A stretch of DNA of 12,878 nucleotides from a virus. Its lineage: Duplodnaviria > Heunggongvirae > Uroviricota > Caudoviricetes. A program made the translations under genes and the position numbers. The DNA lies in IMG/VR virus record IMGVR_UViG_2681813225_000019, one strand, 5' to 3'. This document shows positions 4,487 through 12,649 of the stretch, one piece after another (the first letter of the stretch is position 1; each line of letters starts with the position of its first letter). The notes under the pieces are model-generated. The model was not told where the DNA came from. It worked only from the letters and a program-made list of their open reading frames with translations, and did not search any database.

Positions 4487-4537
4487 ACCAAACGACTCGG
4501 GGTGCCCTTCTGCGTGAAGGCTGAGAAATACCCGTAT
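4487..4537 (+). promoter_or_regulatory. 5' portion of the thiM TPP riboswitch aptamer (thi-box), truncated at an island junction
   Basis: AACCAAACGACTCGGGGTGCCCTTCTGCGTGAAGGCTGAGAAATACCCGTAT matches the E. coli thiM aptamer as I remember it, including the CUGAGA thi-box core. The expected continuation (CACCTGATCTGGATAATGCCAGCG...) is absent; island-type sequence follows. Confidence 0.7.
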
Positions 4538-4666
4538 TTTCTCATTTAGTGTTTTTTGTGGTTCGGGGTTGTTCGTGGTTGTTTGGATATATATTTGATA
4601 TTAAATGGAATGTTGCGTTTTCTTGTTTGTTATTGTTCGTCGTTGTTCGTAGAGCTTCAACGAAAT

Positions 4667-4690
4667 GTGTGGTCAGTTGTGTGGTCAGTT
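4667..4690 (+). repeat. Perfect tandem direct repeat, 2 x 12 bp (GTGTGGTCAGTT), 36 bp upstream of the int start
   Basis: GTGTGGTCAGTT at 4667-4678 and again at 4679-4690. Confidence 0.6.
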
Positions 4691-4725: not shown

Positions 4726-5946
4726 GTGGGAAAAGCACTAAACAAACTGAGCGATTCGACATTAAAAAAATTGGCGGCTGTCCAGGCAGAAAAAGAGCGT
4801 TTTTACTCCGACGGGGGCGGGCTGGAGATTAAACACTCAAAAGGCGGAAAATTAACCTGGTATTTCCGGTACCGAACGGGAGGCCGTGAGGTTGCCGCAG
4901 AGCGGTTAAAGCTGGGGGCTTACCCTGAATTGTCGCTGAAAGCTGCAAGGGAAAAACGCGCACAGTGCCGGGCATGGCTGGCTGAGGGTAAAAACCCCCG
5001 TTATGAGTTGTGCGCCACAGTACAGGAAGCGCTAAAACCCGTTACGGTGAAGGAGGCGATTAACTACTGGCTGGAGGAATATGCGAAGGATAACCGCAAA
5101 GACTACATAAAGCTGGTGCAACGTATGGATAAGCACATCATTTGCCATATAGGGGCAATTCCTCTTGATAAATGCGACACAAGGCAGTGGATCGCATGTT
5201 TTGACCGTGTACGAAAAAAAGCACCAGTAGCAGCGGGGCACGTCATGCAAACCTGCAAACAGGCGCTAAAGTTCTGCCGCAGGAGACGCTACGCGTTCAG
5301 TAATGCCCTGGACGATTTGATCGTCAGCGATGTGGGTAAGAGAGCAGAAATTCGCGAGAGGGTGCACAGTAACAGCGAATTAAAGGAAATTTTACGCGCT
5401 ATTGATGGTGATGTGTTCGCGCCTTACTACAGCGCGTTAATGCGCTTGCTGATTGTGTTCGGGTGCAGAACTGCAGAGGTCAGACTTTCAGAGATCAAAG
5501 AATGGGATCTGAAAGAAATGTTGTGGACAGTGCCAAAAGAGCACAGCAAAACGAAGGTAACGATATTCAGGCCAATCCCCGATGGCATTTTGCCGTTCAT
5601 TCAGAAGCTGGTGGATCAGAACCGGCATACAGGGTTATTGCTCGGAGAACTGAAAAAAGATACCACGGTAGCGCAATATGGGCGAAATGCGCATAAGCGG
5701 CTTAACCAGGAACATTGGTCACTGCATGACTTTCGCCACACGTTTACAACGATGCTGAACGATTTAGGTGTCGATCCGCATATCGTGGAGCACATCACAG
5801 CGCATCAGATGCCCGGTCAGCAAAAAACCTATAACCATTCACGCTATTTACAGGCGAAGCGGGACGCTCTGAATCTGTGGGTTGAGCGCCTCGATGTGCT
5901 GGCTGGAAATCATGAAAATATTGTTATGCTGAAGGTGGCCAAATGA
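4726..5946 (+). CDS. int: Tyrosine-type site-specific integrase (P4-like family), 406 aa
   Basis: GTG start at 4726 with AGAGGA seven nt upstream. C-terminal catalytic signature present (LHDFRHTF gives the HxxR box; YNHSRY gives the catalytic Tyr region). N-terminus resembles P4-family integrases (LSDSTLKKL). Adjacent to the island junction. Confidence 0.93.
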   Translation: MGKALNKLSDSTLKKLAAVQAEKERFYSDGGGLEIKHSKGGKLTWYFRYRTGGREVAAERLKLGAYPELSLKAAREKRAQCRAWLAEGKNPRYELCATVQEALKPVTVKEAINYWLEEYAKDNRKDYIKLVQRMDKHIICHIGAIPLDKCDTRQWIACFDRVRKKAPVAAGHVMQTCKQALKFCRRRRYAFSNALDDLIVSDVGKRAEIRERVHSNSELKEILRAIDGDVFAPYYSALMRLLIVFGCRTAEVRLSEIKEWDLKEMLWTVPKEHSKTKVTIFRPIPDGILPFIQKLVDQNRHTGLLLGELKKDTTVAQYGRNAHKRLNQEHWSLHDFRHTFTTMLNDLGVDPHIVEHITAHQMPGQQKTYNHSRYLQAKRDALNLWVERLDVLAGNHENIVMLKVAK

Positions 5947-6716
5947 AATTACCTAAAAGACTCTATTATCCGTTACCTGAAGCGGCAGAAAAGTTAGGCT
6001 GTGCAATAAAAGATCTTTATCATTACGCATATATAGGTGCTCTTAATATTTCTGTATATATACCAAAAATTGATGCTAAAAAATTCAATTTTTCATTATG
6101 TCATTTTATCAATGGTTGTAATGAGGAAGAATTAATAAAATATCCTTTCAATGATGAATCTGCTGTTTTTGGAAGTAATTTTACAGTTGGTTTAACTGGT
6201 GACACTGAATTTTTAGATAGTGCCATTATTGGTCCTGTAGGGAATTCTATCAAATGTTATTATGTTAGCAGCTTATCAGGGTTTTATTATACTCCGGCAT
6301 ATGTTTTTGCTGATGTCGAATTTAGCATGAGACAATATATAAAATGTTCTCATCTTACGAATAAGTATGGTGATGATAATCTCATGTATGTTTTTTGTAA
6401 GGGTGGTTATGAATTTGATGTTAACTATTTGTGTGTGATGGCTAGTGATTTAGATAATATAAAAAATACGGGAGACTTCCCGAAGATAACAGAAGATAGC
6501 CCAAAAGCATCGTCAAAAAGGAATGAGGTTATTTACTCTTTAATTAAACTTATTCCAGAAATGGGTGATGTAGACCTGGACACGGAATCATTACCTAAAA
6601 TAGCAGATTTAATTGATTCTATAGCTGCATCCAGAGGGATAGAATTTCCAAAAACACATTGGCAGACATGGCAAAAGTATTTGGGGCGTGAATCTCAACA
6701 AAAACGTAAAAAGTGA
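5943..6716 (+). CDS. Hypothetical protein, 257 aa, AT-rich accessory/cargo gene of unknown function
   Basis: Uninterrupted ORF whose ATG overlaps the int stop (ATGA at 5943-5946). Visibly more AT-rich than flanking int and alpA. N-terminus (PLPEAAEKLGCAIKDLYHYAYIG) looks like a short helix-turn-helix; the remainder has no motif I recognise. Confidence 0.8.
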   Translation: MKLPKRLYYPLPEAAEKLGCAIKDLYHYAYIGALNISVYIPKIDAKKFNFSLCHFINGCNEEELIKYPFNDESAVFGSNFTVGLTGDTEFLDSAIIGPVGNSIKCYYVSSLSGFYYTPAYVFADVEFSMRQYIKCSHLTNKYGDDNLMYVFCKGGYEFDVNYLCVMASDLDNIKNTGDFPKITEDSPKASSKRNEVIYSLIKLIPEMGDVDLDTESLPKIADLIDSIAASRGIEFPKTHWQTWQKYLGRESQQKRKK

Positions 6717-6744
6717 TATCACGTGCTGGTAGTGTGATATCACA
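6713..6744. promoter_or_regulatory. Two copies of the 10-bp palindrome GTGATATCAC, 12 bp apart; candidate operator
   Basis: GTGATATCAC at 6713-6722 (overlapping the stop of the 257-aa ORF) and at 6735-6744. Confidence 0.4.
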
Positions 6745-6771
6745 CAAACGGCGTTTTACTACCGCCTAGAA

Positions 6772-6807
6772 TCGTCCTCGTTCGGCAACGTTCGAGGACG
6801 TTTTTTT
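6772..6807 (+). terminator. Terminator-like hairpin plus T7 run ending at the alpA start codon; the 3' arm carries the alpA Shine-Dalgarno
   Basis: TCGTCCTCG (6772-6780) ... CGAGGACG (6793-6800) followed by TTTTTTT (6801-6807) and ATG at 6808. GAGGA within the 3' arm is the only SD-like sequence for alpA. Confidence 0.5.
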
Positions 6808-7032
6808 ATGAATCAAAATACACAATTTCAATCACTATCAGATCGCGTAATCCGTGAGGATGAATGCCGTAAGTTAACAGGAGTGTGCCGCACTACACGC
6901 TACGAACTGGAGAAAAAAGGGAATTTCCCGTCACGCCGTAATCTGGGTGGTCGTTCAGTAGGTTGGCTGCTTTCCGAGGTTATGGAATGGGTTAAAAGCC
7001 GGGATCGTATTAATTCAGGCAAGGCAGCGTAA
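6808..7032 (+). CDS. alpA: AlpA-family phage regulatory protein / excisionase-like HTH regulator, 74 aa
   Basis: Small ORF with the AlpA-like C-terminal pattern (GGRSVGWLLSEVMEWV) and a central HTH (CRKLTGVCRTTRYELEKKGNFP); positioned between the int-proximal cargo and the replication module. Confidence 0.88.
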   Translation: MNQNTQFQSLSDRVIREDECRKLTGVCRTTRYELEKKGNFPSRRNLGGRSVGWLLSEVMEWVKSRDRINSGKAA

Positions 7033-7143
7033 AGGGGGGCATATGACACATAAAACAAAGGCGACCGCAGAGGGCCGCCAGTGGCATAACACTAAACTTG
7101 AGCATATCCAGAATACCAGGTTGTTGGCTGGTGGGCAATGCAA

Positions 7144-7320
7144 TCAGTCTGGTTCAGTTCGTTGCCATAACTGCGAAGCTCTCTCCTTTGATGAGTATTC
7201 TTTAAGGTACTTCTCAAGGGCAAAAGAACACGGCGCGAATCGTTCTGATTCATGCTCTTTCTTTCTGAGTCGTCTTTTTCGTGCAGGTGATGTTTTTTTG
7301 GTTGATTCTTCGTTGGTCAT
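7144..7320 (-). CDS. Possible small basic protein, 58 aa (below the cut-off of the supplied ORF track)
   Basis: Hand-translated minus-strand ORF, ATG at 7320 to TGA at 7146-7144: MTNEESTKKTSPARKRRLRKKEHESERFAPCSFALEKYLKEYSSKERASQLWQRTEPD. It lies 57 nt downstream of the RHH-like gene. No clear SD, so this is weakly supported. Confidence 0.3.
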   Translation of the reverse strand: MTNEESTKKTSPARKRRLRKKEHESERFAPCSFALEKYLKEYSSKERASQLWQRTEPD

Positions 7321-7377
7321 TGTGTGCGCCTGTAAAGCAATGCGCCGTAGTACCTCACACCACGGCGCTGGTGATGG

Positions 7378-7557
7378 TTACTCCTGCTCTTTGGCCTTGC
7401 GGCGCTGGCGGCGTTTGATTTCGCCTTTAACGGCAGTAACTATAAATTGCGCTTTGCTTTCACCTTCATCTAAATTTTTTTCTAAGTCTGCAACAACATC
7501 ATGCGGGAATCTGGCATTTAACTGTTGCGACTTATTATTTGTTGAACCTGTTGCCAT
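7378..7557 (-). CDS. Ribbon-helix-helix (CopG/Arc-like) small DNA-binding protein, 59 aa; candidate island repressor
   Basis: Minus-strand ORF from the internal ATG at 7557 (SD GAGAGGA upstream): MATGSTNNKSQQLNARFPHDVVADLEKNLDEGESKAQFIVTAVKGEIKRRQRRKAKEQE. The pattern fits an RHH fold (strand QLNARFP, then two helices). The 114-aa extension in the ORF track is not protein-like. Divergent from the replication operon. Confidence 0.55.
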   Translation of the reverse strand: MATGSTNNKSQQLNARFPHDVVADLEKNLDEGESKAQFIVTAVKGEIKRRQRRKAKEQE

Positions 7558-7740
7558 TACTGAATCCTCTCTAAGTTGGTGCGATTCAGTATACACAAAA
7601 AAATTCAGAGAAAAAGGCTTGAAGTGCGATTCACTTGCTGATAGGTTAAAAACAGATGGTGCGATGCACCAAATAACAACGCCCCGCAGTGCGGGAACAC
7701 ATACGGGGCGTCTAACCAACAACGTAAACTAGGAGCCGTT
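7558..7740. promoter_or_regulatory. Divergent control region between the RHH gene and the replication operon, with inverted repeats
   Basis: 9-bp inverted repeat TACTGAATC (7558-7566) / GATTCAGTA (7585-7593) spanning the RHH gene SD. GTGCGATTCA occurs at 7579-7588 and 7623-7632; TGGTGCGAT at 7577-7585 and 7657-7665. Further hairpin-like segments at about 7658-7670 and 7693-7706 were read by eye. Confidence 0.45.
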
Positions 7741-8298
7741 ATGGTTGCCGTAAATCATATACCACACCTTGTACACACACAAACGGCCTTTGTGTGGCGT
7801 TTTCTGGCCCTGAATATCGGAGAAAAAAACCAGTTGATCGCCAGTGTCGAAAATAGCTATGATTCCCGCGCACCTCATAAAACGGGTGCCGGGATTGGCG
7901 TCCTGGGCAAAACTGAAGCGCATAACACGCGCCCCGCGTGTTTTTTTGTGCCGCATAGTCACACCTTATCAATGGTGGGCTGTACGGGGGCGGAGCAATC
8001 CGCGCCGGTTTCTTCAGTGTCCGGTTACGCCAACCCTGTACAGTCCGCCACCAGCGAAATTGGCGTTTCCGGTGGCGGTTATCTTAACCACACTGAGGAG
8101 GCTGCCAACATGGCTACTATCCCTACCCTTGTACATTCTCAAACCGCCTTTCTCTGGCGCTTTATCATCTTTGGCGCGTCAGAACATCAAATCATCCACG
8201 TAACCGCCTGGACGGAACGCGAAGCGCGTAGCCGTTGCCCGTCAGGTTGTGTTGCTGTATTCGCCGCCCGTATTCGTCAGGGGGTGTGCCATGCTTAA
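7741..8298 (+). CDS. First ORF of the replication operon; 185-aa ORF made of two tandem paralogous small-protein modules (possibly two genes, with the second starting at 8110)
   Basis: ATG at 7741 with AGGAG upstream. Module 1 (...HLVHTQTAFVWRFLA...) and module 2 (MATIPTLVHSQTAFLWRFIIF..., own GAGGAGG SD at 8095-8101 and ATG at 8110) are clearly related. The module-1 equivalent of the module-2 C-terminus (VAVFAARIR) appears in a different frame (RVFLCRIV). Confidence 0.5.
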   Translation: MVAVNHIPHLVHTQTAFVWRFLALNIGEKNQLIASVENSYDSRAPHKTGAGIGVLGKTEAHNTRPACFFVPHSHTLSMVGCTGAEQSAPVSSVSGYANPVQSATSEIGVSGGGYLNHTEEAANMATIPTLVHSQTAFLWRFIIFGASEHQIIHVTAWTEREARSRCPSGCVAVFAARIRQGVCHA

Positions 8299-12364: not shown

Positions 12365-12376
12365 GGGGTGGGGACG

Positions 12377-12649
12377 ATGGTACATGACCGCATAGCGGAA
12401 GAACTGGAGGCGAAAGGCTTTTACCGGAGAGCGTCGGCGCGATGGGGTGAAGTCATGCAACTGGTGGAGACAGACAAGGAACGGCATCACATCACGATGC
12501 GACGGCTGGAATGTTCCAGGAAGGCACAGAGGCCACCGGAGCCGCCGGATAATTACGGAGACCTGAAAAAGGCGGTCGATCGCACTTATGCCGAAATGGG
12601 TATGGATGGTGCTGGTGATGAAATATGGCGAAATTACCAGGACAGATAA
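12377..12649 (+). CDS. PerC-family transcriptional regulator-like protein, about 90 aa (alternative GTG start at 12368)
   Basis: MVHDRIAEELEAKGFYRRASARWGEVM... resembles the N-terminal region of PerC/Pch-type regulators, as recalled from memory. ATG at 12377 preceded by GAGGGGTGGGGA. Confidence 0.7.
   Translation: MVHDRIAEELEAKGFYRRASARWGEVMQLVETDKERHHITMRRLECSRKAQRPPEPPDNYGDLKKAVDRTYAEMGMDGAGDEIWRNYQDR

Follow-up and report, generated by a model that had tools for sequence, protein, structure and literature searches.

Results

Gene content of the locus

The DNA analyzed was a viral stretch of 12,878 nucleotides (IMG/VR record IMGVR_UViG_2681813225_000019), hereafter the window. A tyrosine integrase gene of a phage-satellite island, int (positions 4726-5946, + strand; 406 aa; Pfam Arm-DNA-bind_3 and Phage_integrase), is followed on the same strand by an ORF for a 257-aa, int-overlapping, three-module protein that we refer to as X (5943-6716, from the ORF list and family alignment) and then by alpA (6808-7032; 74 aa; Pfam Phage_AlpA, E = 3e-16). 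AlpA is the master activator and excision regulator of Gram-negative PICIs (PMC6092414). The island also encodes a DUF927 primase, SSB, PerC, and isrK/C4 RNAs. In the ORF list, the X start codon and the int stop codon share the bases ATGA (5943-5946), and an SD-like AAGGTGG (5932-5938, + strand) is located within the final int codons, 4 nt upstream of the X ATG. This overlap, first noted in a sequence-only reading of the locus, recurred as a 4-nt ATGA overlap in 16 of the 19 family loci with a readable junction, and most family loci contained the junction gaaGGTGGc.aaATGA with the SD-like site conserved. Because the X family resolves into 19 clusters at 90% identity and into 390 at 50%, we conclude that X is a real gene.

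X has a GC content of 0.323 (GC3 of 0.18-0.26), compared with 0.495 for int (GC3 of 0.55), 0.46 for alpA, and 0.48 for the island, which bears out the earlier impression that X is more AT-rich than its flanking genes. An identical X allele was present in 47 STEC genomes, at two sites.

X occupies a variable slot between int and alpA

Wherever flanks were readable, X relatives followed int without exception and, save for L034, preceded alpA; the islands concerned were PICI or cf-PICI satellites. These relatives originated from E. coli, Salmonella, Klebsiella, Providencia, Buttiauxella, and metagenomes, with identities down to ~26%; the remote members were exclusively metagenomic. The int-X-alpA synteny was maintained across islands with different primases and in islands with or without capsid genes. 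Searches of 50,697 phage records and 72,556 plasmid records returned no match to the X family, and scans of species-representative genomes revealed a single locus, in Buttiauxella. For none of the family members examined was a Vibrionaceae source identified, with most of the 390 clusters carrying no taxonomy.

Comparison of gene content at this position across related islands showed that the slot is variable and that X is not present in every one. Islands at the same chromosomal site with 97-100% identical int genes contained X, an X in which only the center was swapped, a divergent member of the family, or, unrelated to X, a DUF6387 gene. The slot was empty in cspD-site islands of another int/alpA allele, and no remnants of X or of the dyad boxes described below were found in the empty slots examined. 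An identical cassette spanning the int tip, X, the intergenic region, and alpA was also found at another chromosomal site in islands whose int was only ~65% identical. X is thus exchanged horizontally among phage-satellite islands of E. coli, and the earlier proposal of a variable, separately acquired slot gene was correct. Since close islands presumably work with an empty slot or with DUF6387, X is presumably not a universal part of alpA control. A relationship between X and DUF6387 (PF19924) was rejected on an hhalign probability of 0.2%; PF19924 was matched by the slot gene of the DUF6387 island (L003) at E = 7e-26 and gave no match to X.

X is a mosaic of three modules

Four segments could be distinguished along the plus-strand reading frame of X. 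Module 1 (aa 1-40; 5943-6062) is an excisionase/AlpA/MerR-like winged helix, module 2 (aa 41-176; 6063-6470) is a beta-rich, hypervariable central domain, a predicted disordered linker (aa 177-186; 6471-6500; pLDDT <50) follows, and module 3 (aa 187-257; 6501-6713; pI of 9.4) is a basic helical C-terminal module of what we term type A, with the sequence landmarks …LIKLIPE…GIEFPKTHWQTWQKYLGR…KRKK. Mean pairwise identities within the family were 0.56 for the N-terminal module, 0.23 for the center, and 0.54 for the C-terminal module. Module 2 is also the most AT-rich part of X, with a GC content of 0.30, and no fold match to it was found. Identity of the center fell to 0.12-0.14 between proteins with 95% identical C termini, and 33 protein pairs had C-terminal identity of at least 0.9 yet central identity of <0.5. 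At one locus (L005), an intragenic swap had replaced only the segment corresponding to 6000-6520. By sequence comparison, this mosaicism appears typical of a specificity domain.

The N terminus of X had previously been described as HTH-like, and its fold proved to be that of an Xis/MerR-type, excisionase-like winged helix. Module 1 was the part common to the variant architectures inspected across the 390-cluster superfamily, and its recognition helix is poor in basic residues and has one Asp and one His that do not vary. Profile and structure searches, which the sequence-only reading had proposed as a check, yielded nothing beyond weak HTH hints and a generic wHTH, and family, PDB, and BFVD searches agreed with it that the other ~220 aa contain no recognizable domain. 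This remainder of X had no relative in Pfam, NCBIfam, PADLOC, PDB, or BFVD, and searches of X and 61 architectural variants against Pfam, NCBIfam, PHROGs, and PADLOC produced only the weak N-terminal HTH hints. With Pfam at E≤0.1, X had no match and so no HTH_17 or Phage_AlpA profile match; HTH_17 was weakly matched by only 2 of 61 X relatives (E of ~1e-3). The sole PADLOC match to X was mad1 at E = 0.015 over residues 8-34, and neither the X variants nor the DUF6387 slot gene matched PADLOC models. In X we found neither an effector domain nor a signature of transmembrane segments or of enzymatic activity. The R-x6-H sequence of X (R130/H137) is located in the hypervariable center and was not conserved in the family alignment, so HEPN was rejected, in line with the earlier decision not to call it.

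Paired dyad boxes follow the C-terminal module of X

The paired palindromes noted earlier at the 3' end of X were confirmed as two dyad boxes, neither assigned to a strand. Box 1, GTGATATCAC (6713-6722), overlaps the X TGA stop codon and starts at -95 from the alpA ATG; box 2, GTGATATCAC (TGTGATATCACA; 6734-6743), starts at -74, with the two centers 21 bp apart. In the window alone, the pair is only mildly unusual, as 9 of 200 shuffles contained at least two matches; because the pair is conserved across genera, it is far more than expected by chance. No other GTGA-NN-TCAC sequence was found in the window, and no such site occurred near attL. Type-A loci contain two GTGA-NN-TCAC boxes, 20-22 bp apart, at the X stop codon, and an exact box was found at the stop codon in 19 of 19 type-A loci versus 0 of 14 other loci. 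In the intergenic alignment, the half-sites were the sole invariant columns, with spacers and flanks diverging freely. Coding constraint does not explain the boxes, since they lie outside the ORF in one locus (L018). Box 2 was degenerate in L007, L016, and L026 and in type B.

A second type of C terminus, type B, pairs with (T)GGAA-N1-2-TTCC(A) dyads that are similarly placed, at roughly -95/-74, and lie within the final codons of the gene. Within type B, G-I-P is changed to E-I-S by symmetric base changes that preserve the dyad. In a third subtype, two copies of GGAATATTCC are spaced by 21 bp. We observed two to three operator classes, each with one C-terminal class, in about 12, 4, and 1 lineages. 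Box class, as judged from these alignments, follows the C-terminal module of X and neither AlpA nor the N-terminal helix. Part of this covariation could be linkage, with the boxes overlapping or abutting the C-terminal coding sequence.

Other readers and roles of the boxes were considered. AlpA alleles did not segregate with operator class (0.64/0.59/0.59), nearest neighbors crossed classes with the same recognition helix, and the DUF6387 island has no boxes and an AlpA that is 95% identical; autoregulation sites for AlpA were therefore rejected. The N-terminal helix of X was equally similar across operator classes, and recognition of the boxes by this HTH is disfavored because the same N terminus occurs with both classes. 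An RNA hairpin or terminator formed by the boxes was also rejected because we observed no stem covariation between box 1 and box 2 (0.033 versus 0.029; 298 of 500 shuffles were as high) and changes at the centers mostly break pairing. These comparisons indicate that the boxes are conserved as sequence, as for a protein site, and not as an RNA stem. The palindromes had been taken to suggest that X is under its own control; they are at the 3' end of X, in the upstream region of the alpA promoter. Because the boxes are at a fixed distance from alpA and covary with the C-terminal module, they point to control of alpA by X and not to autoregulation.

The alpA promoter and leader hairpin

A -10-like hexamer read from the sequence, TAGAAT (6767-6772, + strand), presumably marks the alpA core promoter. 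This promoter has no match to a -35 element (ACAAAC at that position); the X-less DUF6387 island has TTGCTT there. In every aligned locus, an xAxxAT hexamer adjoined the hairpin described below, and a constant ~28-30 nt separated box 2 from the -10/hairpin. For an inferred transcription start site at about 6779, the box centers would be near -40.5 and -61.5.

The alpA leader contains a hairpin, CGTCCTCG…CGAGGACG, followed by T7 (6773-6807, + strand, by covariation and folding), with the alpA Shine-Dalgarno sequence GAGGA (6794-6798) inside its 3' arm. Six of nine pairs showed compensatory changes (covariation score of 0.413 versus 0.241 in shuffles; 0 of 500 as high), and the 116-nt fold of 6700-6815, hairpin included, was at -40 kcal/mol (z = -5.7). 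The hairpin was present in the DUF6387 island too. It is likely both a terminator and an SD-sequestering insulator against read-through from int and X.

Discussion

A candidate regulator of alpA

X looks far more like a modular DNA-binding switch on the alpA promoter than an anti-phage defense gene. We propose, with about as much confidence as doubt, that X is a regulator cotranslated with Int that binds the box operators to gate alpA and uses its variable center as an input domain. Through the ATGA overlap and the internal SD, X would be translated along with Int and would consequently be present in the quiescent island. The C-terminal module would occupy both dyad operators just past the X stop codon; at 21 bp apart, or about two helical turns, these would point to approximately the same side of the helix. 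Bound at about -41 and -62 of a promoter that lacks a -35 element, X would gate the transcription of alpA, which serves the satellite as master switch of its excision and replication. This geometry suggests class-II-type activation, with repression as the alternative, and the leader hairpin would insulate alpA from int-X read-through. The cassette-swapped center most plausibly has a sensing role, as suggested by its variability: it may recognize a helper-phage protein or another infection cue and thereby set which phages induce the island. The N-terminal Xis-like helix, the most conserved part of X, is given no role by the proposed model.

Helper phages induce alpA transcription by a route that was not identified (PMC6092414). 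A tentative and rather doubtful extension of our proposal is that, in some Gram-negative PICIs and cf-PICIs, the X family provides the helper-phage sensor that has been missing, Stl-like in function and evolutionarily unrelated to Stl. Synthesized together with Int, X would occupy its cognate alpA operators until binding of a helper-phage protein by the center turns alpA on. Exchange of the center would then retarget a satellite to new helpers, and exchange of the C-terminal module with its operators would create orthogonal regulatory circuits. X offers a testable candidate mechanism by which certain satellites may sense a helper phage, and the class of int-overlapping genes gains in enterobacteria a concrete picture of a modular protein with a swappable input domain and defined operators, namely pairs of GTGA-NN-TCAC or GGAA-N-TTCC at -95/-74 of alpA. 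If correct, the proposal would account for helper specificity in the satellites that mobilize virulence and defense genes among STEC and Klebsiella and would make orthogonal sensor-operator parts available for engineering PICI "drones." Should it be wrong, what remains is an orphan accessory gene followed by a motif of unusual conservation.

Alternative explanations

The sequence-only reading had regarded X as a candidate cargo or defense system. In a version of this idea that we consider unlikely, X would be an accessory anti-phage or interference protein of the Tai/Rpp type whose center binds and blocks a phage protein, leaving the HTH and the boxes for expression control only. A slot that is variable or empty in related islands, an AT-rich gene that has spread recently (as the identical allele in 47 STEC genomes at two sites), and a hypervariable, recognition-like center would all fit, immune systems have been reported at PICI 5' ends (PMC11364771; PMC10085698), and some satellite interference proteins are without an enzymatic domain. 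Our findings do not support the defense reading, as X, its variants, and the DUF6387 alternative had no defense-model match, X has no effector domain, and the family was found only in int-X-alpA and never in phages, plasmids, or defense islands. Moreover, operators located 3' of X at the alpA promoter would be useless for autoregulation, and the N- and C-terminal modules have been kept over genera together with their cognate DNA sites.

X could alternatively have a structural role in excision or integration, serving as an RDF at att DNA together with Int and AlpA; the boxes would then be architectural or of no consequence. This view draws on the excisionase-like fold of the N terminus, its retention in every variant architecture inspected, and the obligate translational coupling of X to Int. 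Deletion of iolg abolishes PICMI115 excision, and the authors proposed an Int-IOLG-AlpA complex (PMC10803314). We nevertheless regard this role as improbable: the conserved DNA sites are at alpA, about 2 kb from attL, and not at att arms, with no further GTGA-NN-TCAC in the window, and the recognition helix, with its invariant Asp and His, is poor in basic residues. A hypervariable center of 130-200 aa with class-switching C termini would be unexpected for an architectural RDF, and in both EcCICFT073 and PICMI115 excision is triggered by AlpA on its own (PMC6092414; PMC10803314). It seems very unlikely that another factor, a helper-phage regulator or host protein, reads the boxes and that X is an unrelated hitchhiker abutting them. 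The connection between X and the boxes rests on sequence, and simple physical linkage would be enough for a C-terminal type and its adjacent boxes to stay together; yet the boxes were missing in every case without X, as in the DUF6387 island, though alpA and its core promoter and hairpin are retained, each operator class pairs with one C-terminal class, and symmetric substitutions maintain the type-B operators inside coding sequence. The motif is, to our knowledge, not a CRP or FNR consensus, and our literature search returned no description of it, only unrelated primer sequences.

Relationship to known systems

The closest precedent for X, by analogy, appears to be IOLG. The iolg gene of the Vibrionaceae satellite PICMI115 overlaps int, is constitutively expressed with it, and is required for helper-induced excision (Nat Commun 2024, PMC10803314). 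Like X, which lies between int (4726-5946) and alpA (6808-7032) of a satellite, IOLG genes are situated between int and alpA of AlpA-type satellites with starts overlapping the int stop by 1, 4, or 13 nt; ATGA, the overlap of X at 5943-5946, is the commonest. Both also fall into many unrelated or fast-diverging families without an annotated domain and are missing from some related elements; for PICMIs, 13 iolg/icg families are distinguished. IOLG belongs to Vibrio PICMIs, in contrast to the enterobacterial PICIs and cf-PICIs of X, and the two are likened by position and not by sequence. Unlike for X, a three-module architecture, cassette swapping, and cognate alpA operator pairs have not been described for IOLG, whose sole known phenotype is loss of excision (PMC10803314).

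SaPI Stl and Rpr of Gram-positive PICIs would share with X the logic of a satellite DNA-binding regulator that is present before infection and very divergent between islands. In Stl/Rpr, the variable part ties induction to the helper by binding a specific protein of the helper phage, whereas sensing by X is only inferred. A PDB sequence and fold search revealed no relation between X and Stl/Rpr beyond a generic wHTH. Stl is divergently transcribed and represses, whereas X is codirectional, coupled to int, and has operators at activator-like positions of a promoter without a -35 element.

Proteins of the excisionase/AlpA/Vis/MerR group consist of a single domain of about 55-90 aa, in contrast to the 257 aa of X with its two further modules and no Pfam match. 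The recognition-helix equivalent of X is poor in basic residues, and the class-specific sites do not covary with this domain. An RDF is typically a small single-domain protein acting on att arm sites; X has three modules and sites at the alpA promoter.

PICI and P4 anti-phage hotspots resemble the X slot in being variable, int adjacent, AT-rich, and horizontally exchanged (Fillol-Salom 2022, cited in PMC11364771; Rousset 2022, PMC9122126). Hotspot cargo is portable, found elsewhere, and detected by PADLOC/DefenseFinder, whereas the X family is confined to its slot, without an effector, and apparently wired to alpA. Defense systems occur in several genomic contexts, and X occurred in one. Satellite-encoded Bro-N, AntA, Rha, and ORF6N proteins, which are located after alpA and have other domains and no detected homology to X, likewise shuffle DNA-binding and other modules.

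A variable gene slot between int and alpA

The window opens in E. coli chromosomal DNA with yehB, yehA, rcnB, rcnA, and rcnR and ends within an integrated island whose first gene is a tyrosine integrase (int; 4726-5946). Next come a 257-aa ORF (X; 5943-6716, plus strand), alpA (6808-7032), a minus-strand YlcI/YnfO-like gene, the isrK and C4 antisense RNAs (7870-8055), small PHROG ORFs, DUF4222, a DUF927 primase, SSB, and PerC. Phage-inducible chromosomal islands (PICIs) of Gram-negative bacteria are arranged in this order (PMC6092414). The top match of 5300-7100 was E. coli strain 10671, at 100% over that span. Among 5,426 complete E. coli genomes, 55 carried X; in 47 the allele was 100% identical, with carriers in O157:H7, O145:H28, O103:H2, and O121.

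Confirming the sequence-only reading, X overlaps the int stop codon through ATGA and is more AT-rich (GC 0.323; GC3 0.18-0.26) than int (GC 0.495; GC3 0.55) or alpA (GC 0.46). The N-terminal HTH suspected in that reading appears as a winged helix (aa 8-40) in an AlphaFold model built on 19 homologues (pLDDT 77.9, pTM 0.60), which we judged usable; a beta-rich centre (51-166), a disordered linker (177-186), and four C-terminal helices are predicted to follow. As had also been anticipated, the rest of X matched nothing in Pfam, NCBIfam, PADLOC, PHROGs, PDB, or BFVD, and the C-terminal module has no recognisable DNA-binding fold. The R-x6-H motif, rightly not called HEPN, is not conserved among relatives.

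Comparison of related islands upheld the proposal that X occupies a variable accessory slot. At the rcnR site, islands with int 97-100% identical carry a 239-aa X relative in which only about 6000-6520 is exchanged (L005), a relative divergent over its whole length (L004), or an unrelated DUF6387 protein (L003). The slot is empty in cspD-site islands with another int/alpA allele, leaving a ~410-bp spacer and no X remnant; Int in cspD islands is 407 aa when X is present and 412 aa when the slot is empty. Furthermore, cspD/clpS-site islands with int only ~65% identical match the window at 100% over a stretch that begins in the final ~90 bp of int and includes alpA, placing the recombination breakpoint inside the int 3' end. 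This 1.2-kb cassette (~5851-7050 and loci L001 and L002; int end, X, intergenic region, and alpA) is thus 100% identical between islands at rcnR/thiM and at cspD/clpS. The DUF6387 occupant (331 aa; 3644-4639 of L003 from ETEC6335, and similar hits H39-H45) also has an ATGA overlap with int and is AT-rich (GC 0.33); it matched no defence model and has no dyad boxes 3' of the gene.

X itself is mosaic. In pairwise comparisons of 31 full-length relatives, identity averaged 0.56 and 0.54 in the N- and C-termini and 0.23 in the centre, and 33 family pairs combined C-termini at least 90% identical with centres below 50%, down to 12-14%. An exhaustive profile search gave a superfamily of 390 clusters; all variant architectures inspected from these keep the N-terminal helix. 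Their centres are dissimilar and measure between 130 and about 200 aa, and they end in either of two main C-terminal types, A (…KYLGR) or B (…DVELDYVE). In P0100, a remote metagenomic relative of 380 aa, the N-terminal HTH plus a ~100-aa unit occurs in two tandem copies, suggesting that the N-terminal module and adjacent domain may duplicate as one block.

Relatives down to ~26% identity (Klebsiella, Providencia, Salmonella, Buttiauxella, and metagenomic contigs) always lie 3' of int and, with the single exception of L034, 5' of alpA, and the int/X junction is ATGA in 16 of 19. Their islands have different primases, with capsid genes present or absent. Searches of 50,697 phage and 72,556 plasmid records detected no relatives.

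Dyad boxes covary with the C-terminal module of X

The palindrome GTGATATCAC occurs twice before alpA (6713-6722 and 6734-6743; boxes 1 and 2). Every type-A locus carries a pair of GTGA-NN-TCAC boxes, spaced by 20-22 bp and starting at the X stop codon, where an exact box was found in 19 of 19 type-A loci versus 0 of 14 others. The only invariant columns in a 13-lineage intergenic alignment were the half-sites, one hairpin position, and the alpA start codon. A box1:box2 stem showed no covariation (0.033 versus 0.029 in shuffles), ruling out the boxes as an RNA stem, while the hairpin just 5' of alpA covaries (6 of 9 pairs compensatory; 0.413 versus 0.241; 0 of 500 shuffles). The boxes are therefore conserved as sequence, like a protein site.

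Type-B loci share the type-A N-terminus and carry another pair, (T)GGAA-N1-2-TTCC(A), at about the same -95/-74 from the alpA ATG, embedded in the last X codons. Symmetric substitutions here, GGGAATTCCC (G-I-P) versus GGAAATTTCC (E-I-S), keep the dyad and alter the peptide. In a third subtype, GGAATATTCC is present as two copies spaced by 21 bp. AlpA does not sort by operator class: identity is 0.59 between classes, against 0.64 within A and 0.59 within B, its alleles have nearest neighbours across classes with an identical recognition helix, and the DUF6387 island, whose AlpA is 95% identical, shares the -10 and the hairpin and lacks the boxes. Thus, operator class covaries with the X C-terminal module. 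Judged from sequence, the palindromes are candidate operators tied to X; their presence at the X 3' end had been correctly noted, and control of X itself, as then proposed, was not supported.

The alpA promoter and leader hairpin

In all loci, a -10-like hexamer (TAGAAT in the window, 6767-6772) directly precedes the hairpin, and a constant ~28-30 nt separates the end of box 2 from the hairpin that follows it. A TSS near 6779 would put the box centres at about -40.5 and -61.5, where CRP-type activators classically act (class II and class I, respectively). At -35, the window reads ACAAAC, versus TTGCTT in the X-less L003 promoter.

The leader hairpin (6773-6807) covaries strongly over 13 lineages and keeps a repeated GAAC/AAC motif in its loop. 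Its 3' arm includes the alpA Shine-Dalgarno, and T7 (6801-6807) is followed directly by ATG. The hairpin looks like an insulator that would terminate int-X read-through at T7 and render it untranslatable by sequestering the Shine-Dalgarno, with PalpA-started transcripts escaping: alpA's own mRNA would lack the hairpin if it began within the 5' arm.

A candidate regulator of alpA

The closest published entity to X is iolg of Vibrio PICMIs, which lies in the same place, likewise overlaps int through ATGA, falls into many unrelated families, and is expressed constitutively alongside int; excision requires it, by a mechanism left open (PMC10803314). The DUF6387 protein may be another, unrelated iolg family. 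X is a well-delimited new variant of this int-overlapping-gene class, with a concrete, testable proposed mechanism. In PICIs, helper phages induce alpA transcription via an unidentified inducer (PMC6092414). In the likeliest model, to which we give an even chance, X, translated together with Int, would bind its cognate operator pair and gate alpA, the hypervariable centre acting as input domain; we lean slightly towards activation rather than repression.

The main weaknesses of this regulator model are that no DNA-binding fold is recognisable in the C-terminal module, that the boxes are physically linked to this module, and that the conserved Xis-like N-terminus is unaccounted for. The same linkage is what speaks for the boxes being read by another factor, which we nevertheless consider very improbable. 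That X serves as a cofactor of the excision complex is unlikely, though less so. Similarly doubtful is a binding-type defence or interference protein, since X is always 3' of int and absent from phage and plasmid records, whereas portable defence genes behave otherwise. The earlier proposal of a defence system under its own control was therefore not supported, given this invariant int-X context and the covariation of the boxes with the C-terminal module.

Other features of the island

isrK (7870-7946, plus strand; 66 bits) and C4 antisense RNA (7968-8055, plus strand; 77.6 bits) lie directly 5' of an icd-like ORF and form a P1/P4-type RNA immunity module within a PICI-like island, and therefore an RNA-based repression layer apart from the int-X-alpA module. 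The 229-aa ORF on the plus strand at 7043-7732 is probably not a real gene: opposite it lies a minus-strand reading frame (7378-7722) whose product matches PHROG 949 over residues 55-113, and at the corresponding position of related islands RefSeq has a short minus-strand gene of the YlcI/YnfO family. The island also encodes a full-length PerC-family regulator (12368-12649; E=3e-43). A PerC-like gene of EcCIMP1 silenced LEE expression (PMC11773190), and most carriers here are LEE-positive STEC.

Between rcnR and int, 4488-4593 gave a broken, sub-threshold TPP riboswitch match (21 bits versus a gathering score of 54.3; E=0.066). The island appears to be integrated into the thiM leader/riboswitch, so that the aptamer is split by attL. 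A tandem direct repeat, GTGTGGTCAGTT x2 (4667-4690), lies ~35 nt 5' of the GTG at which int starts, and repeats of the GTTGTTCGT type occur at about 4560-4650; these repeats may serve as arm sites for the integrase or as elements of the int promoter.
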